43,780 nucleotides of DNA. Source: Alphaproteobacteria bacterium (GTDB taxonomy: Bacteria > Pseudomonadota > Alphaproteobacteria > UBA6615). Location of the stretch: contig CBDHEC010000031.1 in the NCBI GenBank assembly GCA_965261975.1, forward strand, positions 1 through 43,780. Reading direction: 5' to 3'. Each line of letters begins with the position of its first letter. The first letter of the stretch is position 1. This document shows positions 2,542-14,915 of the stretch, one piece after another. The notes below the pieces were generated by a model. It was not told where the DNA came from. It saw only the letters and a list, made by a program, of their open reading frames with translations, and did no database searches. The translations under genes and the position numbers were made by a program.

Positions 2542-3527
2542 TTGGACAGCATCGATTTGAGCTTCATGCGGAGGTGAGAACCAATAAAGGCGTTCTCGAT
2601 CAGGAAAGTGATCGGGCCAAACGCCCATGTCTTTTTTATCTTGTTCCACTTGTACCGGTCGAACGGCCGGACATGACTGCTGTCGGCCCCCAGCACACGC
2701 AGCTGACGCGATGACAGGCCACCAATGTCGCAGCTCCAGATGGGCAGCGGGGTAACCTGCTCGTCGCCGAAAATGTCGGTTCGGTAGTAATCGACAAGAA
2801 TCAGCGTGCGGTCGGCGCGCGACGGATGATCGGGGCCATGGAAGCCGCTGTCGTCAAAGAGGACGATATCGCCCTTGCGACCGTCAAGCCGCACCATCGT
2901 CGACAATATCTCGTCCTGCATCTCCTTCGGGTAACTGTTCAGCCGCTGGCCATGCGGCGCACCAAGCTTGTGTGTGCCGGTGCAGTAACTGAACGCACCT
3001 TCCGATGTGTCGTGCAGATAGATCGCACCGCCGACACCAAGCGGCAGCTTCATGGTTTCCTCGGTGATCGGCGAAACATGATCCGTACTCTTGCGCCAGC
3101 CCGCCGCGAAGTCCGAATGCATCGGGAAATAGACATAGCCCATGCCACGATCCGCCTTGAGATTGGTCTCGGCGAGGATGCATTTGCTGCCGAGATAGGC
3201 CTCCGTGATATCGAGCACCCGCTCGTTGGCGATCACAGGATAGACCGGCGCCCCCAGCAGGGTCGGCTGGATCACCTTCTTCTGATGATCGGCGCGGTAG
3301 TAGCCCCACACCCCGGCGACCGACGGCTGCCGAAGCATCTCTTCGGTACGCGCGGCGACGGCATCGACGGCAGCCTTCGGCAGACACCCACGCAGGATGA
3401 CGTAGCCGCGCTCACGCAGGTTGCGAACGGCGAGATCGATATCCGGATTCTCCCCTTCGATGATGTAGGAATCGGGAAGCGGCGCTTCGGATGCTTCACG
3501 AACAATCGTCTCTGGTTCAGTTGGCAT
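2538..3527 (-). CDS. Phytanoyl-CoA dioxygenase (PhyH)-family Fe(II)/2-oxoglutarate oxygenase
   Basis: GYVILRG N-terminal motif, HxD (MHSDF), GTHK, and KGDIVLFD..GFHG distal His. Start ATG 3527 follows an AAGGGG RBS. Confidence 0.8.
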   Translation of the reverse strand: MPTEPETIVREASEAPLPDSYIIEGENPDIDLAVRNLRERGYVILRGCLPKAAVDAVAARTEEMLRQPSVAGVWGYYRADHQKKVIQPTLLGAPVYPVIANERVLDITEAYLGSKCILAETNLKADRGMGYVYFPMHSDFAAGWRKSTDHVSPITEETMKLPLGVGGAIYLHDTSEGAFSYCTGTHKLGAPHGQRLNSYPKEMQDEILSTMVRLDGRKGDIVLFDDSGFHGPDHPSRADRTLILVDYYRTDIFGDEQVTPLPIWSCDIGGLSSRQLRVLGADSSHVRPFDRYKWNKIKKTWAFGPITFLIENAFIGSHLRMKLKSMLSK

Positions 3528-4992
3528 TGCGGACCCCTTCTTCAGCAGCGGTTTGTGACATGTCGTCGAACGTTGCCTGGAGACTGGAATACAAGGCGTC
3601 GCCAAGGTCTTCCGGCTTCTCGTATTCAGCCGGATCGATCGTCGTTTCATGCATCGCGGCAAGCATGAATTCGCCTTCGCGCGCAAAGGCGGCACGTTCC
3701 TCGTCGTTATATTCGATCAGCCGGTGCAGGACGTTACCGGTCTGCGCAAGATCGGTCGCGACATCGACATGCGGCAAATGGCCGAAATAGAGGCTCGGGC
3801 TGTAGGCCAGCACCGGCACACCAAACGCCGCCGCCTCGAAAGCACTGCGACCGAGCAGCGAAACGACCGCCCGGGATTTCCGGATCAAGGGAATGGCAAA
3901 CTCGCGCGGATCGATCAGCAGAACGTTCGGCATGGTGTCGAGCATTCGGTAGAAGCTTAGATCGCGGTAGCCGAGCGCCGGCACATGATCCTTGATCGCC
4001 AGATAGGTGCCAACGGGCAGTTCCTTGGCGACCTGATGGATCATCGCAGTCTGGTCGAAGAATTCCGGCGTCTGTCCCGACAGCAGGACTTCGGGCTCCA
4101 TCTGCAAAGGCATGAAGACAAAGGGATGGCCCGCCTGCGTCAGCTCATCGGCGGTCATGCTCGTGCGCACGAGATGACGGAAGACGCTGCGTCGCTTGAA
4201 ATGAAACTTGATGTGCCGCCAGGGGCTGTAGCCGAAGCGCGTGACCTTGTCATACCGGCGCAGGTGCCAATAGACCGTGCGGACAAGAATGAGAATCGTG
4301 GTTTTCAGCAACACCCGCAAACTGATGCCGGCGAAAAACTTGCGGCGGATATCCATGTGAAAGGGCGGCGGCTCCAGCATATCCGACGACAATGACTCGC
4401 CTGCGGCGCGCACGCGCTGATGCGCGGCCAGCATCCACTCACCATTCACCTTCATGCCGTCTTTCCAGATCATCCGGTCGTGCAGGAAGGAATAACCGAG
4501 GCAGCGGCTGGGTATCTTCCGACCGCGCGCAACATCGCAGACGACGCGTCGGCCGTTCATGGCAAGGGTGACCCCGTGACGCTCCATGATTTCTTCGACC
4601 GCGTGATACATCGCGACGAACTGACGAATCCATTCGCGATAGGGCAGCGAGGTTTCGATCTTGGTGTAGGGGAATGACGTGCTGCCAGTGAAATACAGGC
4701 GACGGTCGGCGAGGTTGTAGTGAAACACCGTATCGAATCGACGCTCGATTTCACGCGCCGCGGGAATCAGATCCTCGTCATCGGGCGGCAGATGGTCGAG
4801 CATCTCCGAGGTGGCATACACCGCTTCGAACATGCCGGTGTCGAGCAGCGGCTTGATGTCTTGCGCGAAGCGCACGAGGCCGATCAGTCGCGCGCCCTGC
4901 TGTTCTTTGAGCATGCGCAGCATCGGCATCATGAACTTGCGCTCGTCGCCCGTTCCCTCGAACAGAATGCATTGCGTGGGGAGTGAACTCAT
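3517..4992 (-). CDS. Capsule polysaccharide biosynthesis protein (Capsule_synth/KpsS-like glycosyltransferase)
   Basis: C-terminal FVFMPLQMEPE, LAIKDHVP, LIRKSRAVVS and AFEAAAFGVPV pattern of the KpsS/KpsC-related family. Confidence 0.7.
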   Translation of the reverse strand: MSSLPTQCILFEGTGDERKFMMPMLRMLKEQQGARLIGLVRFAQDIKPLLDTGMFEAVYATSEMLDHLPPDDEDLIPAAREIERRFDTVFHYNLADRRLYFTGSTSFPYTKIETSLPYREWIRQFVAMYHAVEEIMERHGVTLAMNGRRVVCDVARGRKIPSRCLGYSFLHDRMIWKDGMKVNGEWMLAAHQRVRAAGESLSSDMLEPPPFHMDIRRKFFAGISLRVLLKTTILILVRTVYWHLRRYDKVTRFGYSPWRHIKFHFKRRSVFRHLVRTSMTADELTQAGHPFVFMPLQMEPEVLLSGQTPEFFDQTAMIHQVAKELPVGTYLAIKDHVPALGYRDLSFYRMLDTMPNVLLIDPREFAIPLIRKSRAVVSLLGRSAFEAAAFGVPVLAYSPSLYFGHLPHVDVATDLAQTGNVLHRLIEYNDEERAAFAREGEFMLAAMHETTIDPAEYEKPEDLGDALYSSLQATFDDMSQTAAEEGVRNAN

Positions 4993-5037: not shown

Positions 5038-6696
5038 TCAGGCGACTTCCTGCGTGGAAGATGTCGTGGTGCGCGTTTCGCGCAGTGCGAAAATCTCGGC
5101 CCGCTCGGCCCGGAGATGTGCGGTCAGCTTCTCGATCACGGTTTTCTGCGCCGGGTCGTCGACGATGTTCAGCAGTTCTCGAGGGTCGGCCTGCTTGTCA
5201 TAGAGCTGTTCGACGGCCAGCCGATCGCCATCCAGCGTCGCCATGATCTTGTGGGTGGGCGAGGTCACGGTGAAGTAGATCTTGCGGCGAGCTATATCGG
5301 CGTTCCCGCTGCCGCAACTCTCCGAGACGATGGCCGGCCTGCCACCGCGAAAGATGCTGACGCCCTTGAAGCTGTCATGGGCGGGTACCGCGAGTGAGTC
5401 GAGGAACGACGCCGTCATGCCCATGCTGTCGGTCATGCCGGAATCGGCCGGGTCCGCCTGCGTGTTGGCCAGGATCAACGGAACCTCGATATCCTCGTAA
5501 TGGGTGCGTGAGCCGATTCCCGATTTCTTGCGGGGGCTTTCGGCGTAGTAGAGACCATGGTCGCCGGTCGCGAGTATGACGGTGTCGTCGAGCTGGCCGG
5601 TGCGCTCGAGCGTCGTCAGCACTTTGCCGAGCAGGCCATCGACATACATCAGCGCGGTGTCGTAGAGCCAGCGCCGGCGCGTCTGGCCACGCAGGCGGGC
5701 AACCATCCAGCGCGGCAAGTAACGCAAACGACCAAGAAGGTGCAACGGCCGGCTGATCGATCGGCAGTCATGCACGTCCATCATGTGCATATAGATGAAC
5801 CAGCGATCATCCCTGTTCTCTTCGATGACCCGGCACAGCGGCGCGACGATGTCGCCGAAGACGACAGGAAAGTGCGACATGGCGAGAAAAGGCCAGAGCG
5901 TCTGCGACGCGACCCAGCGGCGCGTCCGCCATTTGACGGATTCGAGGGCACGGTGCCGGAACAGGCGCAGGCCTCCCGGGTTTCGCTCGCCGAGAAAGCG
6001 CCAATATATGCCCGGCGCGATACCCATAACCTTGTCGAAGACAATGTCGGGATTGTGTTCCAGCAAATCCCGCTCGGCCCTGCAGCCCTCAGCAACCCGG
6101 CTGTTGATACGCCTGAGCTTCTCGGGCCAGAGCGACTTGTCGTGATGTTCGATCATCTCGACGAGGCCGTCGAGAAACAGAGCGAAGTCGCCCTTCACCT
6201 GCGCGACATCGGCCGTCGTGTCCGCGGCGCGAAGCGCTTCGACCTGAAAACGCACGGTCCGGCCGACCCGTTGTTCGAGCAGCAGCCGGAAGTCGGATGT
6301 CGTGCGCACCGTATCAAAACCTCGGCCATAGCCGGTCGCGGCGCCGAGCTGGTTGCAACTCGCCAGCAAATGCGTTCGCAGGCCGGCTTGCTGCAGGGAT
6401 TCGGCGAAGCTCTGCGGGCGCAGCCGGATACCGTTGTCATAGCCGCCATGGTCGAGCGGGTAGGTCTGCGAGAATATCGCCGGCGTGACGAACTGCGTCG
6501 ACTGCGCATTCGTGACCACCCGGCGCACGAAGCCGCGGTCGATGATGCGCGCAAGGTTCGGAAACATGAACTCGCGCGCCGGGGCGTTCGACAAGGTGTC
6601 GAAGCGCAGCGCGTCGATCAGCAGGAACAGGCCGTTGCGCGGCACGGCACCTGCGGCCGGCGCTGTCATCTCGACATCGTTGCGCGTTTCGCTCAT
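5038..6696 (-). CDS. Sulfatase-like hydrolase/transferase (alkaline phosphatase superfamily) with Thr at the nucleophile position
   Basis: LLLIDALRFD, STQFVTPAIFSQTYPLDHG, YMHMMDVHD, YDTALMYVD, ATGDHG, EVPLI and LYD..ADPREL.N motifs. Start ATG 6696 overlaps the pyk stop. Confidence 0.8.
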   Translation of the reverse strand: MSETRNDVEMTAPAAGAVPRNGLFLLIDALRFDTLSNAPAREFMFPNLARIIDRGFVRRVVTNAQSTQFVTPAIFSQTYPLDHGGYDNGIRLRPQSFAESLQQAGLRTHLLASCNQLGAATGYGRGFDTVRTTSDFRLLLEQRVGRTVRFQVEALRAADTTADVAQVKGDFALFLDGLVEMIEHHDKSLWPEKLRRINSRVAEGCRAERDLLEHNPDIVFDKVMGIAPGIYWRFLGERNPGGLRLFRHRALESVKWRTRRWVASQTLWPFLAMSHFPVVFGDIVAPLCRVIEENRDDRWFIYMHMMDVHDCRSISRPLHLLGRLRYLPRWMVARLRGQTRRRWLYDTALMYVDGLLGKVLTTLERTGQLDDTVILATGDHGLYYAESPRKKSGIGSRTHYEDIEVPLILANTQADPADSGMTDSMGMTASFLDSLAVPAHDSFKGVSIFRGGRPAIVSESCGSGNADIARRKIYFTVTSPTHKIMATLDGDRLAVEQLYDKQADPRELLNIVDDPAQKTVIEKLTAHLRAERAEIFALRETRTTTSSTQEVA

Positions 6697-8126
6697 TGCG
6701 CCGCGCGCTCCCAGCCCAGGCTGGCAACCAGCTCGGATATCCGGTTGACCTGCAGGCTGTTCATGCGATTGCCCGGATAGGGATAGGTCACGCCGGTCGT
6801 CAGCACGAGATCCGTCTCGTCGAGGAGGCCGCGCTGCCACAGCATCTCAAGCACCAGCCCGAAATGGTCCATGCTCGATTTCGGGAACGGTACGCTGCTG
6901 TGCACACCGAGCGTGCCGGCGATCAGGTTGAAGCTGCGTGCCGCAGCGGCATCGTCGCTCACCGCGATAATCGACTGACTCGGCCGCCCGGCCGCGATCA
7001 TGCGGGCCGCGAATCCCGAGCGTGTAATCGCCACGATCCTGGTGATCGGCAAGGCGCGACACATCATCGGGATAACCCGCGACATCACCTCGGGAACCGT
7101 ATCCCCGATGTCGGGCGCTTCGGCGTCGAGAAGATTCTGCGCGTGGACTTCCGAGGCTTCGGAAACCTCGCGCATCAGTCGGACCGCTTCTTCGGGGAAC
7201 TCTCCGATCGCGGTTTCGCCCGAGAGCATGGTCGCCGCACAACCGTCAAGCACCGCGTTTGAGATGTCGCTGACCTCGGCCTTCGTCGGGAAGGAATTCT
7301 GAATCATGGTGTGCAGCATCTCGGTCGCGATGATCACCGGCCGACCGTGCCGGCGGGCCGCCTCGATTATCTGCTTCTGGCGCAACGCCACGTCATGCAG
7401 GCTGGTTTCCACGGAGAGATCGCCGCGATCGACCATGATGGCGTCGGCGGCCTCGGCAATTTCGTGCACATTGTCCATGCCGCCCTGGTTCTCGACCTTG
7501 GCGACGATACGTGGCGATGTCTCACCGATCAGATCACGGAACTGGCGAATTTGGTCGGCCGATTCGACAAAACTCAGGCCGATAAAGTCGACACCCGTCT
7601 CACGTGCGAAGGCGATCATCGCCTCGTCGCGCGGCGTGACCGACGGGGTGTTCAGCTTGACGAACGGCACGTTAATGCCCTTGCGGCTGCGCAGCTGGCC
7701 GGCCGTCTCCGCACGGCAAGTGATGTCGCGCCCCTCGACCCGGGTCACCGTGAAGCGGAGCGTGCCGTCATCGGCCAGAACGATATGGCCGACCTCGAGG
7801 TCGGTATGCAGGTCGGGATAATTGACCGGCACCTTGGCGCTGCCGTCGTGGTCCGGCTCGGTTGTCAGGACGATTTCGTCGCCCAGCTCGAAGCTCGGCT
7901 CGTGGGCCAGTTGCGTGGTGCGAATCTTCCGGCCCGGGATGTCGAGCAGGATCGGTACATCCGGCAGCACCCGGCGCACTTCGGTGATCGCGTTCCTGTG
8001 CCAGTCCAGGTCCGCATGCGAGCCATTCAGCCGCGCCACATTCATGCCGGCATCACGCAATGCGAGCAGCGCGGGCTCGGACAGGCTGCGCGGGCCGATC
8101 GTGCATACGATACGGGTTCGATCCAT
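6693..8126 (-). CDS. pyk: Pyruvate kinase family protein with divergent active-site motifs
   Basis: RTRIVCTIGP, GMNVARLN.SH, KGINVP, IVAKVEN, RGDL, MLSGETA and a C-terminal alpha/beta domain. Start ATG 8126. Confidence 0.85.
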   Translation of the reverse strand: MDRTRIVCTIGPRSLSEPALLALRDAGMNVARLNGSHADLDWHRNAITEVRRVLPDVPILLDIPGRKIRTTQLAHEPSFELGDEIVLTTEPDHDGSAKVPVNYPDLHTDLEVGHIVLADDGTLRFTVTRVEGRDITCRAETAGQLRSRKGINVPFVKLNTPSVTPRDEAMIAFARETGVDFIGLSFVESADQIRQFRDLIGETSPRIVAKVENQGGMDNVHEIAEAADAIMVDRGDLSVETSLHDVALRQKQIIEAARRHGRPVIIATEMLHTMIQNSFPTKAEVSDISNAVLDGCAATMLSGETAIGEFPEEAVRLMREVSEASEVHAQNLLDAEAPDIGDTVPEVMSRVIPMMCRALPITRIVAITRSGFAARMIAAGRPSQSIIAVSDDAAAARSFNLIAGTLGVHSSVPFPKSSMDHFGLVLEMLWQRGLLDETDLVLTTGVTYPYPGNRMNSLQVNRISELVASLGWERAAQ

Positions 8127-8130
8127 GAGG

Positions 8131-9207
8131 TCAGTCCTCAACAAACAAGGGAAGACCCTCGATCGCCGCAACGATCTCGGGTCGCATATATCGACTGTCG
8201 GGTTGTTGGCCATCCACCAAAACACGGCGCATCTCTGTACCGCTGATTTCATGCGTCACATCGCTGCCCTGGTGCGGACAGGTCTGTTCGGTGACGATCC
8301 CGTCGCATACGGCGCAATAATAGGGTCCGTGTAACCGCATGATCTCGATGCCGAGATCGCCATCGAAGCGGCGCGTCAGTTCGTGCGCCTCATACCGGCC
8401 GTACCAGTCGCCGACCCCGGCATGGTCGCGCCCGACAATGAAATGTGTGCAGCCGTAGTTGCGCCGGATCAGCGCATGAAAAACGGCCTCGCGCGGCCCG
8501 GCATAGCGCATCACGGTAGACAGGATACCAAGCACCACCTTGTCGTCCGGCAGGAACCGGCCGACGAGCGCGCGATAACCCTCCATGACGACCTGTGGCG
8601 TGTAGTCGCCGCCGCGCTTGTGCCCGACCAGCGGTTGCACGAACAGGCCGTCGGCATGCTCCAGGGCGACGCGTTGCAGATATTCGTGCGCCCGGTGCGG
8701 CACGTTGCGCGTCTGGAAGCCGACGACGCGTTGCCAGCCGCGCTCGGCGAAGATCGCGCGTGTTTCATCCGGGGTCAGCTCATCTGCCGAAATATCGAAC
8801 CGGGCGCGCTTGAGAAGGCGCACGGCGCCGCCAACAAAGACCGGCTTCTGACGATAGAAAAAAGCCACGCCAGGATGGCTGTCATCGTCGGTGCCATAGA
8901 TCAGGCGCGCCGCGGCCGGCCTGTCGCAGGCATAGAAGTCACGCGGATCAAGTCCACCAACGACCTCGCCGTCAAAGGTCAGGTCGACGCCCGCGCTGGC
9001 CTGCAGGCGGTCGGCGTCCGCCTGGCTGACGTCGAGCACAACCGGCAGCGGAAACACCGCGCCGGACGGCAGACGCATCGTGTCGACAACGCTGCGAAAG
9101 CTGGCCTCGTCCATGAAACCGTCGAGCGGCGCAAACGCACCAAGACCGATCTTCTCAAGCTCGAGATACTGGTTGCGGTCGAGCTCCAGCTGGGTGCGGC
9201 CGGTCAC
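8131..9207 (-). CDS. sat: Sulfate adenylyltransferase (ATP sulfurylase, Sat type)
   Basis: FAPLDGFM, FQTRNVPHRAHE, MRYAGPREAVFHALIRRNYGCTHFIVGRDHAG and CxxC..CPH zinc site. GTG start at 9207 in a GTGA overlap. Confidence 0.92.
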   Translation of the reverse strand: MTGRTQLELDRNQYLELEKIGLGAFAPLDGFMDEASFRSVVDTMRLPSGAVFPLPVVLDVSQADADRLQASAGVDLTFDGEVVGGLDPRDFYACDRPAAARLIYGTDDDSHPGVAFFYRQKPVFVGGAVRLLKRARFDISADELTPDETRAIFAERGWQRVVGFQTRNVPHRAHEYLQRVALEHADGLFVQPLVGHKRGGDYTPQVVMEGYRALVGRFLPDDKVVLGILSTVMRYAGPREAVFHALIRRNYGCTHFIVGRDHAGVGDWYGRYEAHELTRRFDGDLGIEIMRLHGPYYCAVCDGIVTEQTCPHQGSDVTHEISGTEMRRVLVDGQQPDSRYMRPEIVAAIEGLPLFVED

Positions 9208-9740
9208 TGGGCAGCCTCCAGATCGAGCGCGGCAGCCAGTTCGGGTATCCGGCGGACGATCCGCATCGCGATATCCGACGGCGGTTCGACCCGCGCGGCA
9301 TCGATCACCATGTCGGGCTGCTGTGGCGCATGCCACGGTATATCGACACCGACAACGTTCGGGGTCTGTCCGCTATCGGCGCCCGCATAAAGTCCTTTCG
9401 AATCCCGCTCCCGCAACAGATCCATCGGCGCATTAACATAGACTTCGAAATATCCCGGCAGGTTGTCGCGGTTCCACGCCAACAGGTCCGGGTGCGCATA
9501 GAGCGCGGCAACCACGACGGTTTGCCCCTGGCGCGCGAGCCAGCCCGACAGCCGCTGAAGGCGGCCGATCTGCTCCCGGCGAGCCGGTTCTTCATATCCA
9601 AGGCTGGCCCCGAACAGCTCGCGTATAACGTCGCCGTCGACAAGCACAAGCTCCGGAATGTGCGGTTTCAGCGTTTCAACCATCGCCTCGGCGATCGTCG
9701 TCTTGCCGGCGCCCGACAGGCCTGTAAGCCAAATAACCAT
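9204..9740 (-). CDS. cysC: Adenylyl-sulfate kinase family protein
   Basis: VIWLTGLSGAGKTT P-loop, DGD..R, EVYV and RDSKGLY. Start is ATG 9740 or TTG 9764. Confidence 0.85.
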   Translation of the reverse strand: MVIWLTGLSGAGKTTIAEAMVETLKPHIPELVLVDGDVIRELFGASLGYEEPARREQIGRLQRLSGWLARQGQTVVVAALYAHPDLLAWNRDNLPGYFEVYVNAPMDLLRERDSKGLYAGADSGQTPNVVGVDIPWHAPQQPDMVIDAARVEPPSDIAMRIVRRIPELAAALDLEAAQ

Positions 9741-9764
9741 CCTGGACGTTCCCGTCAGCTCCAA

Positions 9765-10997
9765 TCAAACACCGAAAGCGGTGTCACGAGACAGCCGCCA
9801 ACGCAGCCAACTTCCCGTTGCCAGCGACGTGATAATCGATGCCAGTACAAAAGCGACGAACAATGAATCGTCGATAATACCGGTCGCATGCGCGACGCTC
9901 GCCAACACAATGCCCGGGCCGCCCCGCGCATTCATGGTGATTCCGAAATCGAAGGCGCGCGACGCCGATGCGCGTGCGAGCCGCGCCGCCAGCGCAACGC
10001 TCGAGATCTTGACCAGCGACGACAGCACGATGAAGCCGACAACCGGCATCAGCGAAAAGTCGCCGGGCAGATCGAGCTTGAGCCCGACCAGCGCGAAATA
10101 GATCGGCACAAAGAACCAGATCGCCATCTCGGAAATCCGACGCCGGGTCGCGGCAAGCTGCGTGCTCTGAAAACGGCCGATGACCAACCCGGCGAGCAGG
10201 GCGCCGAATACGAGATTGATCTCGAACAGGCTGGCGACGGCGACCAGGGCGAGGCAGAACAGCAACAGGTAGCTCATGAGCATCGGCTCGCTGGCTTCGC
10301 TGATTGTTGCCCGCCCGACCGAGCGCAACAGGGCCGGCAGAAACAGGACAGACGCGACGGCAAAAACCAGCGTTGCGCCCACGACACCACCAATATCGGC
10401 GATCGCAACATGGGCTTCCTGCTGGATTGCCGTGGCCACGGCAAGCATCACCCAGAGCACGAGGTCCTGCGTCGCCGCCGCGACCAGCGTCAGTTTGGCG
10501 AAATTGCTGTCCATCATGTTGAGGTCGATGAATATTCGCGAAATCACCGGGATCGACGTCACCGACGTGGCGATCGCCACAACCAGGGTAAAGGCCAGCG
10601 GGTCCGCCGCGGCGGAATTGCCCAGCCAGGGGGCCGCCAGCCAACCGGCGACAAAGGGCGGCCCGAGACCGCCGGCGACGAGCGCCAGTACGAGCACGCG
10701 GTCGCGCGGACCCAGCTTCGGCGTGATGCTGAAGCCGGCCGTGAACATCAGCATGATCATGCCGAGCCAGTAGAATACCGACAGCACCACCGCCTGTTCC
10801 GCGAAACCCTGAAACAACCATGCGTGCAGGCCCGGCGCGACTAAACCGAGGACCGAAGGTCCCAGGAAGAGACCACCACAGATCTCGCCGACAACGCGCG
10901 GCATCCCGAACCGCGAGAACAGATGCCCGCCCGCCAGCGCCGCGCACAGCAACAGCGCGACGGACAGCAGGAATTGCGAGAGCTCCGAATCACTCAC
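9765..10997 (-). CDS. Cation:proton antiporter (CPA2/KefB-like), transmembrane domain only
   Basis: PRVVGEICGGLFLGPSVLG, TSIPVISRI, FGALLAG, FVPIYFALVGL and MNARG motifs, with many hydrophobic segments. Confidence 0.85.
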   Translation of the reverse strand: MSDSELSQFLLSVALLLCAALAGGHLFSRFGMPRVVGEICGGLFLGPSVLGLVAPGLHAWLFQGFAEQAVVLSVFYWLGMIMLMFTAGFSITPKLGPRDRVLVLALVAGGLGPPFVAGWLAAPWLGNSAAADPLAFTLVVAIATSVTSIPVISRIFIDLNMMDSNFAKLTLVAAATQDLVLWVMLAVATAIQQEAHVAIADIGGVVGATLVFAVASVLFLPALLRSVGRATISEASEPMLMSYLLLFCLALVAVASLFEINLVFGALLAGLVIGRFQSTQLAATRRRISEMAIWFFVPIYFALVGLKLDLPGDFSLMPVVGFIVLSSLVKISSVALAARLARASASRAFDFGITMNARGGPGIVLASVAHATGIIDDSLFVAFVLASIITSLATGSWLRWRLSRDTAFGV

Positions 10998-12199
10998 GGG
11001 CGCCTGCGGTGCCCGACATTGTTGAACGAGCCTGACCGGTCACGAAAGCGGGACGGGACATCAGTCCGGCACCACCCCATAAAGCAACTGTTGCGGGTCG
11101 GGCAGGTTCGCGAGAAGTTCCGCGATCCGCGGCCCCGATGTGCCATCACCATAAGGCGAGCCGCCCGAGTGACGGACCGGAGCGGCTTCGATCCGATTGA
11201 GCGCGGCCGCAATCGAGCCCGCATCATTGGGAACGTCCCTCACATTGTCGCCGCGCAAGCGACCGGCCTGTCGTTCGCCGACATTGATGGCCGGCAAGCC
11301 GAAGAGACCGGCCTCGATGATCCCCGATGACGAATTCCCCAGCATCAACGTCGCGTGGCGCAGTGCAGATGCATACTTGCTCGGGCCGAGGGTATCGACG
11401 AAGCAGGCATTCGGTTCCGCGGCGCAAAAGGCCTCAACGTCGCGACGCAACTGTGCTCCGCCGGGATCGCTGTTGGGTGCGGTAAACAGGACGCGGCCCG
11501 GATGCGCACGCAACGCCTCGAGCACATTGCGCATCGGCGCCAGCGGATCTGTTGAATTGGTCTCGGGGTGCACCGTGACGAGCCGAAACCCAGCATCGTC
11601 ATCGCCGGAACATGGCAACCCCACCGCGCGGGCAAAGGAAGGCGCATCGACCGCGGGCGCCGCAAGCAACGTGTCCAGGGTCGGCGAGCCGGTCACGTTA
11701 ATGCGCCAGTCGTCCTCGCCCATCTCCTGGAGAATCGTCCGCGCATGTTGAGACGACACACAGTGCATATGCGAAAGCTTGCTGAGCGCATGACGAATGC
11801 GGTCGTCGACAGCGCCGTCCGTGATCTCGCCACCATGCACATGGACGAGCGGCAGGTTGAACGGCAGGCTGGCCAGCGCGGCGGGGAGCATGTCCAGACG
11901 GTCACCCACGACGAGCATGACATCGGGTACCGTCTGCTCGATCACCTCGCCGGTCGCCTTGCTGATCAATGCCATGGCTTCGGCGGCGGCGGCGGCCCGC
12001 CGCCGCCCATATCGGCACCGGCAACATGCACCTTGGCCGCAGCGGGCATGCCCTCGGCGGCCGCCGCGCCCGGCGCGAGATGCATACCCGTCAGCAGGAT
12101 GTGAAGTTCGACCTCCGGTCGCCCGGCAAGGGACTGCCAGATCGGCGCAAGGATACCGACATCAGATCGGCCAGCAGAAACGGAAAGGATACGTGTCAT
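10994..12199 (-). pseudogene. neuC: UDP-N-acetylglucosamine 2-epimerase, hydrolysing (NeuC/LegG), frameshifted (true lesion or sequencing error)
   Basis: N-terminus (RSDVGIL, LTGMHL) is in 11966-12199. The body (VGDR, HVHGGE, GAVDDRIRHA, VTVHPET, GNSSSGIIEA, INVGERQ.GR, YGDG) is in 11061-11975. Frameshift near 11995, and probably a second near 11075. Confidence 0.85.
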
Positions 12200-13219
12200 T
12201 CAGATACTACCGATTCTGGTGTGAGGTCGCCGTCGGACAACGGCGCGTCGGCTTCGAGTGCCCGGTTCAGCAGGCAACCGACAGGAGAGCGCGAGGGCGG
12301 CAGACCATCGGCAGGCCGCTTTAAGACAACATCTTTCTCGCCCAGTACGCTGCCCGCCGGCAGTGCGTGGCGCATATGCCAGGAACGGCGCACAAGGCGG
12401 GCGGTCTCGATCTCTTCGGGCACTGGTTGTTTCGTGCCGTCGCCGAGCGACATCTCGACATCGCGCAAGCGCGCTATCAACGCGCCCAGTTCACCGGGCT
12501 CAAGCGAAGCACGGTGATCGGGCCCCGGCAGCGTGCGATCGAGTGTGAAATGCTTTTCGATCATCGTCGCGCCCAGCGCCACGGCGGCGATCGCGACATG
12601 GTCACCAAGACTGTGATCCGAATAACCGACCGGCAAACCGAAATATTGTTTCATGGTGGCGATGGCCGTGAGGTTGAGGCTTTCGGGGGGCGCGGGATAG
12701 AGCCGACGTGCAATGCAGAATCGTGATGTCGTCGCAGCCATGCTGGCGGAGCACCGCGACAGCATCATCGACCTCGGCCAGGGTCGCCATACCGGTCGAC
12801 AGGATGACCGGCAGGCCGCGCTCGGCAAACCGGACCAGCGCCGGCGTATTGGTCATTTCGCCCGAGGCGATCTTGAGCCTGTCCATGCCAAGATCGATCA
12901 GCGCATCAAGCTGCGCCAGATCGAAAACCGAAGCCATGAAGCCGACCTTCGCCTCGCGGCACGCCGCTGCGAGCGTTGCGAAATCATCAAGCGACAATTC
13001 GAGATCGCGCAGCAGCGCATCCTGGCTGGATTCGCCGGTGTTCGTCTGCTGGTACGACGCAGTACGCGCATCGCGCACGACCAGCGCATCGGTCGAGAAG
13101 GCCTGGAACTTCACATAGTCGGCACCGGCTTCGGCGGCCACGGACACCATCTCCAGCGCACGGGAAAGCTCGCCGTTATGGTTGACGCCTGCTTCGGCTA
13201 TGAAAATCGGTGCGGTCAA
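12196..13219 (-). pseudogene. neuB: N-acetylneuraminate/legionaminate synthase (NeuB/LegI) with C-terminal SAF domain, frameshifted
   Basis: IAEAGVNHNG, VKFQ, KIASGE, ILSTGMA and LHCTS are in one frame. YPAP, GYSDHSLG, IEKHFTLDR and GPDHRASL are in another. One extra base at 12703-12704 (TCG G CTC TAT). Confidence 0.9.
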
Positions 13220-13229
13220 AACGGCGGCT

Positions 13230-13793
13230 TCAACGGGGATAACGCGTCAATGACGGCACCAGCGTGTCGGCGGGCACGGTGGCGCCGGGCAGTACGACGG
13301 CACCGGCACCAACCATCGCGCAGCTGCCGATATGAACGGCCCCAAGAACAACGGCGCCCGGTGCAATATGAGCGCCGGCTTCGATGACCGCGTCATGCTC
13401 GACAATCGCGCCTGTATTGACAATCACGGCCTCGGAAATCTGCGCCCCCGCATTGACCACGGCACCAGCCAGCACGATGGCGCCGTCAGCGAGAACCACA
13501 TCCGCGGCGACGAAGGCACGGCTATGGACGAGCGAAATCGGCGTTACGGGTCTTGTCGCGTAGCGCCCGAACAGTTCGTGCCGTCGCCGCAAAACCTCGG
13601 GATCGGCGCCACCGAGCCCCATCACGAACCCCGACGCGGCAGCGGGCAGCGGGTCGTCATCGCCGAACAGCGGAACATCAAGCCAATCGGGCTTGTCCAT
13701 GGCGGCGCAGGCAACCACCGCGTGCCCGTTGTCCATGGCGGCCTCGGTCACCGGGCGGGCATGTCCGCCGGCGCCGACGAGAAACAGGTTCAT
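13230..13793 (-). CDS. NeuD/PglD/LegH-type sugar acetyltransferase (hexapeptide repeats)
   Basis: GAGGHAR, VHSRA, IVNTGAIVEHD and HIAPG left-handed beta-helix repeats. Confidence 0.88.
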   Translation of the reverse strand: MNLFLVGAGGHARPVTEAAMDNGHAVVACAAMDKPDWLDVPLFGDDDPLPAAASGFVMGLGGADPEVLRRRHELFGRYATRPVTPISLVHSRAFVAADVVLADGAIVLAGAVVNAGAQISEAVIVNTGAIVEHDAVIEAGAHIAPGAVVLGAVHIGSCAMVGAGAVVLPGATVPADTLVPSLTRYPR

Positions 13794-14915
13794 GCCCCGG
13801 CTCCCGGCCGATGGTCGTGCCAGGCCAATACCGTCTCGATCACGCGCTGCTGGTCGTGTTCATGCAACGAGGACGAGCTCGGCAGGGAGACGACCGTGCC
13901 CGACAGTGCCATTGAAACCCCTTGCAGCGCGCGCGGCGCGTCCTGCCAGGGGGCCTGTTGCGACAAGGATCGCCAGAAGAGGCGCGCCTCGATACCGGCT
14001 GCATCACAGGACGCGACAAGATCGCGCGCCGTTTCTTCGTCCGGCACCCGGATCGAATAGAGCCAGCAAACACTGTCGCAATGCGCCGGGCGCGGCATCG
14101 ACGCAACCGCCGCGAGATCGGCAAAGGCGGCGTCGTAGCGCGCGGCGATGTCGCGGCGGGCGGCAACCATCTCATCGATCCGCTCGATCTGGGCAAGCCC
14201 CCAACGCGGCGTTGATGTTGGTCATCCGGTAGTTGAAGCCGATCATGTCGTGCACATAGTCACTGCCCGGGCGCGCCTGGGTCGACATGTGACGCACCTG
14301 CTCGGCCAAGGCTTCGTCGTCGGTGACCAGCATGCCGCCACCGCCCGCGGTGACCGTCTTGTTTCCGTTGAACGAGAAAATCGCAGCCGCCCCCCCGCTG
14401 CCGCTTGGCTTGCCGCGGTAACCGGCGCCGATCGCCCCTGCCGCATCCTCGATCAGCGGTACCCCATGAGGCGCACAGGCCGCCTCCAGCGCATCAAGGT
14501 CAGCGGTATGGCCGAGAGGATCGACGGCGATCACGGCACGGATCGTCGGATCGGCGGCCAGTGTTTCTGCCACCAGCGCCGGGTCGAGGGCCCAGTCGGA
14601 CTCTCTGACATCCACGAAAGATGCCGTTGCCCCGGCATGCGAAATTGCATTCGCCGAAGCGGCGAAGGTCCAGTCGGGCACGATCACACGGTCACCGGTG
14701 CGCACGCCAACGGCCAGAAGCGCGAGATGTAGCGCTGCCGTACCATTAACGGTCGCCACGGCATGGGCGCGACCGGTGAGGCGCGCCATCGCGGATTCTA
14801 ACGCCGTGACTTCAGGCCCGGCCGATGACACCCAGTTGTCGCGCACGCAACCAAGCAGCAAATCGGCTTCGCGGCCCCGCAGATCGGGCACACTAAGAGG
14901 AATACGTTCAGGCAT
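13790..14915 (-). pseudogene. legC: DegT/DnrJ/EryC1/StrS aminotransferase (LegC-like), frameshifted
   Basis: WVSSAG, NGTAALHLAL, IEDAAGAIG, FSFNGNKTVTAGGGG and GFNYRMTNINAALG. A G5 run (C at 14198-14202) shifts the frame; removing one G restores LAQIERIDEMVAARR and the C-terminus (WLY, SLPSS). Confidence 0.85.

Follow-up and report, generated by a model that had tools for sequence, protein, structure and literature searches.

The subject of this study is a divergent pyruvate kinase (PK) gene in a 43,780-nucleotide stretch of alphaproteobacterial DNA, referred to as the window (assembly GCA_965261975.1, contig CBDHEC010000031.1). The gene belongs to a monophyletic, cross-phylum PK subfamily, whose motif changes are its signature and whose genes mostly stand beside sat and cysC, the genes of sulfate activation. 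The label PKL is used here for this sulfate-activation-linked divergent PK subfamily. The clade, its synteny, its fusions, its conserved catalytic residues and its PK fold are directly established. There is about an even chance that PKL is a genuine phosphotransferase between phosphoenolpyruvate (PEP) and ADP, with altered regulation, dedicated to a module for the synthesis of 3'-phosphoadenosine 5'-phosphosulfate (PAPS).

Position, motifs and fold of PKL

The gene in the window is the following.

6693..8126, minus strand: PKL, divergent pyruvate kinase paralogue with A, B and C domains, 477 aa

The longest open reading frame (ORF) spans 6693..8252 (minus), and the start was set at the ATG at 8126 (MDRTRIV...), in agreement with all relatives. 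The coordinates and the six unusual motifs quoted in the first-pass annotation were correct as written, with the gene lying on the minus strand: RLNGSHA (residues 32-38), DIPGRKIR (62-69), MVDRGDLS (231-238), ATEMLHTM (267-274), PTKAE (280-284) and GCAATMLSGE (295-304). Its statement that the K-x-E, RGD, Thr and SGE elements are retained was confirmed in the translation (K210-x-E212, R234-G-D236, T268 and S302-G-E304).

Pfam matched both the PK barrel (2.8e-92) and PK_C (1.3e-12). The NCBIfam equivalog TIGR01064 was passed with 403.4 bits against a cut-off of 306.4, so annotation pipelines will call PKL "pyruvate kinase", while the scores remained under the cut-offs of the subfamily models NF004491 (412.1 vs 432) and NF004978 (372 vs 462). 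The AlphaFold2 (AF2) model had a mean pLDDT of 88.3 and a pTM of 0.86, and Foldseek superposed it on Escherichia coli PykF with a TM of 0.88-0.91 over about 473 columns. The B-domain lid, including K149, is intact in both the alignment and the model.

PKL forms a separate, cross-phylum clade

The host genome (59 contigs, 3.03 Mb) contains two PF00224 matches, namely PKL and a PK on contig C18 (L001). The latter is the second, canonical pyk whose presence had been left as a question, and it carries the textbook motifs RLNMSHG, DLQGPKLR, MVARGDLG, ATQMLESM, PTRAE and GADAVMLSGE. The two proteins share 35% identity (166/476). Among 21 other genomes with a close PKL relative, 19 hold a further, higher-scoring PK and two, both metagenome-assembled genomes (MAGs), hold only the PKL type.

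Of 7999 entries scored in a word-indexed search, 6973 were relatives at E <= 0.001; identity was 60% or more throughout the best 120, and those with a name were called "pyruvate kinase". A scan of one genome per species gave 554 loci encoding a PKL relative, from which the best 80 (L004-L083) were kept. For comparison, 20 canonical PKs were taken from the same genomes. All 20 have MVARGDL[GA], PTRAE and D-x-x-G-P-[KR], DLQGPK occurs in 17/20, and pattern search found ATQM in 18/20 and G-x-D-A-V-M-L-S in 16/20. The counterparts in the PKL clade are M[IV]DRGDLS, ATEM, PTKAE and G-[CA]-[AS]-A-x-MLS. The substitutions pointed out in the first-pass annotation are thus no chance differences, since across 77 clade members the residues concerned vary hardly or not at all.

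A maximum-likelihood tree (IQ-TREE quick search, LG+G4) was built from 97 rows, comprising 77 PKL and 20 canonical sequences. The short PKL rows L006, L050, L067 and L083 were left out of the tree and of the count of specificity positions, as was L102, a third, very divergent PK type. PKL and canonical PKs were separated with an SH-aLRT of 100 and branch lengths of 0.64 + 0.64. Within PKL, sequences from Pseudomonadota, Bacteroidota, Verrucomicrobiota, Acidobacteriota, Actinomycetota, Chloroflexota, Elusimicrobiota and Gemmatimonadota were intermixed, indicating horizontal spread. Cultured carriers of PKL include Stappia sediminis, Hongsoonwoonella zoysiae, Caballeronia mineralivorans and Acetobacter persici. 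The suggestion that PKs with DRGD and ATEML form one clade tied to sat-cysC loci was borne out by the tree and by the synteny described below.

In a profile search of 1.84 billion cluster representatives, 33765 PK-family matches were obtained at E <= 0.001. DRGD was present in 36 of the best 150 of these matches, and those 36 occupied the top ranks. Four DRGD-type PKs (P0131, P0171, P0177 and P0182) carry an N-terminal extension of about 85-100 aa. No Pfam match was found in the extensions of P0131, P0171 and P0177; that of P0182 matched HTH_IclR below the threshold (26.6 bits, E 5.2e-06), with no single segment reaching it by itself, so a DNA-binding domain on a DRGD-type PK is possible. The profile matches also included P0173 (1051 aa), a canonical-motif PK joined to an adenylate kinase domain (Pfam ADK 5.6e-38), which is a further natural case of PK united with an adenine-nucleotide enzyme.

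PKL is the sole PK in 2/21 genomes, but this does not show that it took the place of a housekeeping PK, as one such lineage seems to be commonly without PK: in the Ilumatobacteraceae MAG carrying L070 (G021) together with 20 relatives, a PF00224 match was present in 5/21 and none in 16/21. The sole PK of G021 is the copy inside the sat-cysC module. Since this lineage often has no PK, PKL appears to have arrived there with the module, replacing no resident gene.

Linkage of PKL to sat and cysC

The genes next to PKL that belong to or adjoin the module are listed below.

8131..9210, minus strand: sat, ATP sulfurylase with PUA_2 and ATP-sulfurylase domains (Pfam 4.8e-82)
9204..9764, minus strand: cysC-like adenosine 5'-phosphosulfate (APS) kinase of the PRK05541 type (PF01583, 110.9 bits)
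9765..10997, minus strand: CPA2-family (Na_H_Exchanger) membrane transporter, head of the operon (Pfam 2e-40)
5038..6696, minus strand: sulfatase-fold (alkaline-phosphatase superfamily) protein (Pfam Sulfatase 5.7e-22, C-terminal half of the model only)

The TGA stop codon of sat lies 4 nt before the ATG of PKL, with GAGGA just upstream, and the likely ATG of the sulfatase-fold gene overlaps the PKL stop codon (ATGA), which suggests translational coupling. The start of sat is likely the GTG at 9210, as judged from relatives.

Gene families around PKL were counted from tblastn and hidden Markov model (HMM) matches, because longest-ORF gene calls at high G+C include antisense artefacts, and these counts, resting on the best 80 of the 554 loci, favour close relatives. 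By tblastn with the proteins of the window, sat was detected in 61/80 loci and cysC in 58/80. Upstream sequence of 1.1 kb or more was available in 78 loci. In 60 of them sat is directly upstream of PKL on the same strand, and cysC is directly upstream of sat in 56 of these 60. PKL and Sat were also found as single polypeptides in two proteins, each from one cluster. P0131 (935 aa) consists of an N-terminal region of ~85 aa followed by PK, PUA_2 and ATP-sulfurylase domains, and P0166 (859 aa) of PK, PK_C, PUA_2 and ATP-sulfurylase domains; both are of the DRGD type with a complete ATP sulfurylase. A complex prediction for Sat and PKL (score 0.00, mark 0.32) has no weight for or against a complex.

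Sat exceeds both curated cut-offs (NF003166, 432.3 bits against 387; TIGR00339, 335 bits against 322.95), contains the QTRN, HRAH and GRDHAG motifs, and is the only ATP sulfurylase of the host genome. The CysC-like protein is the single PF01583 match of that genome and passes NF004041 (152 bits, cut-off 127) while remaining under the cut-off of TIGR00455 (119.4 bits, cut-off 138.7). It has ALY[AS] at the usual FISP position, and DGDV replaces DGDN, as is also the case in the best-matching solved APS kinase; a profile of 23 CysC-like orthologues matched solved APS kinases with an E of 1.9e-39. On the strength of the Sat motifs and cut-offs and of the match of the CysC-like protein to solved APS kinases, the module is read as PAPS synthesis. 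The sole Sat and the sole APS kinase of the genome lie in a glycan locus, so the same Sat may also serve sulfur assimilation. A PAPS_reduct-family gene occurs elsewhere in the host genome (C56:163092-163598).

Transporter genes were frequent near PKL (CPA2 in 16, TauE/SafE in 15 and AEC in 10 loci; any of the three in 31/80), with the CPA2 homologue of the window found in 16-17/80 related loci. Scanning of the flanks revealed Sulfotransfer_1/3 proteins beside the module in six loci (L031, L036, L047, L056, L067 and L076), and two loci in which the gene next after PKL encodes a CysQ-like Inositol_P protein. Homologues of the sulfatase-fold protein were present in 9/80 loci by tblastn, and also in L011, L053, L062 and L082 by Pfam. 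In its N-terminal half a Cys/Ser-x-Pro-x-Arg motif was not seen by eye. This protein is the only candidate transferase adjoining the module in the window.

The pathway for O-methyl phosphoramidate (MeOPN) in Campylobacter involves a phosphoramidate-type donor, and synthesis of such a PAPS analogue by the module was also considered. The idea was prompted by the absence of the DGDN Asn and of FISP from the CysC-like protein, and by a window with a Thr-type sulfatase-fold enzyme and no sulfotransferase. It was rejected because Sat is canonical, genuine APS kinases also occur without the DGDN Asn, and sulfotransferase and CysQ-like genes flank the module in other loci.

Conserved and altered residues

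Comparison of the 77 PKL with the 20 canonical PK sequences gave 72 columns that are conserved and identical, including R32, N34, S36, D62, K67, R69, K149, K210, E212, D236, T268, S302 and E304. By analogy with rabbit-muscle PK, these residues presumably hold the phosphates of PEP and ADP and form the sites of the divalent metal and the monovalent cation; the first-shell ligands of the rabbit enzyme are Arg72, Asn74, Ser76, Asp112, Arg119, Lys206, Lys269, Glu271, Asp295, Thr327, Ser361 and Glu363. Another 16 columns are conserved in each group but different between them, among them P66R, A233D, Q269E, R282K and T373A. R282K is present in 100% and T373A in 94% of the 77 PKL sequences, and the Ala, Gln and Arg at positions 233, 269 and 282 show no variation (100%) among the 20 canonical PKs.

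In the AF2 model, D233 directly precedes helix 234-240 (RGDLSVE), within which S238 replaces Gly (G238S), and E269 directly precedes helix 270-275. P66R lies in the loop adjoining the monovalent-cation site. Two elements of PykF/PykA-type regulation, the effector phosphate loop T-x-S-G-x-T and the PTRAE Arg lock, are not preserved. According to one structural study (PMC3467265), the RGDLG helix (alpha6') of PK unwinds in inactive states, activation involves hydrogen bonds across the A-A interface from the PTRAE Arg of the neighbouring subunit to the carbonyls of the Arg and Gly of this helix, and three Thr make up the binding site for the effector phosphate. Docking tables for human PKM2 place Ala293, Gln329 and Glu332 within 2-4.5 A of PEP-site ligands, and the same docked ligands also touch Pro53, His78, Tyr83 and Lys367 of the adenine pocket (PMC11207066). 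Since these ligands reach the adenine pocket, the acidic residues of PKL could act on the nucleotide.

Divergence was graded among the 36 DRGD representatives, several of which keep canonical features: ATQ occurs in P0144 and, beside PTKAE, in P0171 and P0177, and both G-P-K and PTRAE are retained by the Sat fusion P0166. As judged from these sequences, the oldest PKL marks are the A-to-D change, the Gly of R-x-N-G-[SA]-H, the Pro of D-x-P-G and the loss of the G-x-D Asp, and E269, H272, R66 and K282 are later. The graded pattern indicates that the link to Sat is older than most motif changes, which favours a conserved reaction with evolving regulation over a single substrate switch.

Loci without sat

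The sat gene was missing from 17 loci, 10 of which form one subclade (L049 at 10001-13102, L054, L057, L059, L061, L066, L069, L073, L080 and L081) with hosts in Burkholderiaceae, Chitinibacteraceae, Acetobacter, Azospirillum and Allorhizobium. In 9/10 of these loci, PKL is followed by genes for a TauE/SafE-like and an AEC-like (Mem_trans) permease, with few other conserved neighbours; in L081, PKL is preceded by a CPA2 gene and followed by an AEC gene. A gene encoding a calcineurin-like phosphoesterase comes next in L080 and L069. In two other sat-less loci, PKL adjoins a sulfotransferase. An Rfam scan of seven sat-less loci (145 kb) detected no riboswitch or other RNA family.

Proposed role of PKL and alternative explanations

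PKL is predicted to act as a PK of the K+-independent type (PEP + ADP -> pyruvate + ATP), and its retained activity is judged from the conserved ligand set. The mobile sulfate-activation module would consist of a transporter, APS kinase, ATP sulfurylase and PKL, and would make PAPS for glycan sulfation. PKL would clear the ADP released by APS kinase and give ATP back to Sat and CysC, with a predicted net reaction of ATP + PEP + sulfate -> PAPS + PPi + pyruvate. ADP reportedly also locks APS kinase into a dead-end complex that contains APS. The signature changes would act on regulation and leave the chemistry as it is. Asp233 and Glu269 cap the two short active-site helices, and together with the Gly-to-Ser change they may keep wound and active the helix that ordinary PKs wind on activation only, in which case the cross-subunit Arg lock would be dispensable (R282K); the sugar-phosphate effector loop lacks one Thr (T373A). 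The outcome could be a PK that is constitutively active or regulated in a new way. More speculatively, the acidic residues facing the cleft may exclude 3'-phosphoadenosine 5'-phosphate (PAP), PAPS and APS from the ADP site, as the 3'-phosphorylated PAP and PAPS would otherwise compete with ADP in a PAPS-making complex.

Several observations weigh against PEP-driven ATP regeneration for PAPS synthesis. Most hosts own a PK already, and ATP supply alone leaves the private PK of the module unexplained. In the sat-less subclade every PKL signature residue is kept, although the PKL-TauE-AEC unit has neither sat nor cysC in its vicinity, and regenerating ATP for an APS kinase is no explanation for these loci. 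The Pfam Sulfotransfer domain was absent from the 39 window ORFs scanned. The joint replacement of Ala233, Gln269 and Arg282 could mean altered chemistry, and the docking tables show the PKM2 equivalents of D233, E269 and H272 close to ligands, so that the new Asp, Glu and His face the cleft. The preference of the locus counts for close relatives belongs on the same side.

The first-pass annotation had proposed a neofunctionalised kinase with a different substrate, that is, a PK scaffold with the metal site and the phosphoryl-transfer residues kept and the substrate changed, and we regard this as possible though rather unlikely. Candidates would be another pathway nucleotide in the acceptor role (AMP, PAP or APS), a 2-hydroxy or 3-substituted acid in place of pyruvate/PEP, or transfer of a sulfuryl instead of a phosphoryl group; rabbit PK is able to move the sulfuryl group from sulfoenolpyruvate, and glycolate, fluoride and hydroxylamine are among the compounds that it phosphorylates. 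The strongest support comes from the transporter-only subclade and from the full replacement of three otherwise invariant residues: the core clade has other residues throughout in place of A233, Q269 and R282, which never vary among the 20 canonical PKs, and likewise in place of P66, and their PKM2 equivalents face the PEP-site cleft. In addition, PKL remains linked to TauE, AEC and sulfotransferases where sat is absent, and the module brings PKL into a lineage with no PK match in 16/21 genomes. However, the known first-shell ligands for the PEP phosphate, Mg2+ and the ADP phosphates are unchanged, intermediate members including a Sat fusion keep PTRAE, G-P-K or ATQ, the new acidic residues would repel sulfonate, sulfate or a 3'-phosphate, and no single candidate substrate fits both the sat-linked and the transporter-only contexts. 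The proposal of a different substrate is thus not supported, given the conserved ligand residues and the location of the changes at helix caps, the A-A' lock and the effector loop, but neither is it refuted, as the new Asp, Glu and His face the cleft. The accompanying argument, that a normal PK would compete with NeuB for PEP, is secondary, NeuB being present in just 19/80 related loci. In its most far-reaching form, this idea would make PKL the first PK-family member with a physiological reaction other than PEP + ADP, driven by PEP and acting on a nucleotide or oxyanion of the sulfur pathway, for example by re-charging AMP- or PAP-level nucleotides or by sulfuryl transfer. Such a reaction would explain the ties to sulfate/sulfite-type transporters and sulfotransferases at loci with no sat or cysC, and we consider it unlikely.

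Fusion to Sat and tight translational coupling would also suit a non-catalytic or mainly regulatory subunit, a PEP or adenine-nucleotide sensor or scaffold that tunes Sat, CysC or the anion transporters, as would the N-terminal extension of some forms (with the sub-threshold HTH_IclR match of P0182) and the transporter-only association of one subclade. Such a role is improbable, as the full catalytic set is invariant in 77 members from several phyla, which would be hard to keep without catalysis, and the B-domain lid with K149 is intact. An ordinary housekeeping isoenzyme, comparable to PykA beside PykF and placed in a glycan locus by chance, agrees with the name pyruvate kinase that PGAP-type models and databases give to PKL and its relatives, but it is contradicted by the same gene order in 60/78 loci across seven phyla (those named above other than Gemmatimonadota), by the two Sat fusions and by a PKL tree that does not track taxonomy, and it is very improbable.

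Other genes of the window

Three consecutive nonulosonic-acid genes at 11061-14915 (minus) seem broken when compared with L004:3213-7066. The LegC-type aminotransferase is in pieces of 247 aa and 126 aa, NeuB is in overlapping ORFs of 205 aa and 210 aa, and NeuC (304 aa) is without its N-terminus relative to the model. L004, a relative with 96% identity, carries all three intact (374, 340 and up to 440 aa). The breaks would be due either to assembly frameshifts or to recent decay.

One further gene of the window was noted.

3517-4992, minus strand: ORF of 491 aa, nearest by language-model features to Capsule_synth (KpsS/LipB-like) clusters (score 0.97-0.98)

This ORF had no Pfam or NCBIfam match, and relatives of it were found by tblastn in 13/80 PKL loci.

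Significance and comparison with known systems

Sulfated glycans shape the encounters of aquatic and soil bacteria with phages, grazers and surfaces. To our knowledge, it is not fully settled how sulfate activation gets past its unfavourable first step in bacteria whose ATP sulfurylase is of the plain (non-GTPase) kind. A private PK as the fourth part of a conserved module that moves horizontally would couple the supply of the sulfate donor directly to PEP. In the PKL clade, nature has replaced the Ala-Arg-Gly-Asp, Thr-Gln and Pro-Thr-Arg elements, which belong to the most conserved PK motifs and connect allostery with catalysis. The clade thus allows the helix-winding ("rock and lock") model to be tested and may supply a naturally constitutive PK. 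For annotation, the "pyruvate kinase" recorded in the genomes of roughly 550 species should not count as glycolytic.

PKL has the same A/B/C fold as the K+-independent bacterial PKs, such as the host enzyme L001, E. coli PykF (PDB 4yng/1pky) and the Geobacillus PK (2e28, E 6.4e-81). In common with them it has the catalytic Lys, Glu, Asp, Thr and Ser-Gly-Glu, the cation and phosphate site formed by Arg, Asn, Ser and Asp, and Lys67 instead of the K+-site Glu (the Glu117 position). Unlike canonical PKs, it has A->D and G->S in MVARGDLG, Q->E and E->H in ATQMLES, R->K in PTRAE, P->R in GPK and T->A in the effector loop, has lost the Asp of G-x-D-x-x-MLS, and is located in sat-cysC modules that have spread horizontally.

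Bifunctional PAPS synthases (Sat-APS kinase; PDB 1x6v and 2gks) likewise join sulfate-activation enzymes in one polypeptide or operon and pass the intermediates on, whereas here a PK joins as a third partner, fused to Sat in P0131 and P0166. We know of no described PAPS synthase that includes a PK, and our literature searches turned up no paper tying a PK to sat or cysC, with PK featuring in the results only as an assay coupling enzyme. Preparative PAPS cascades add PK and PEP to Sat and APS kinase. In one published PAPS assay, PK and PEP likewise consume the ADP formed by APS kinase (PMC3366831). These laboratory assays and syntheses combine the same three activities, but with commercial muscle PK as an auxiliary reagent, whereas PKL belongs to a gene module that occurs in nature, is conserved and has a PK lineage to itself; a PAPS supply coupled to PEP would be the design that chemists use in vitro.

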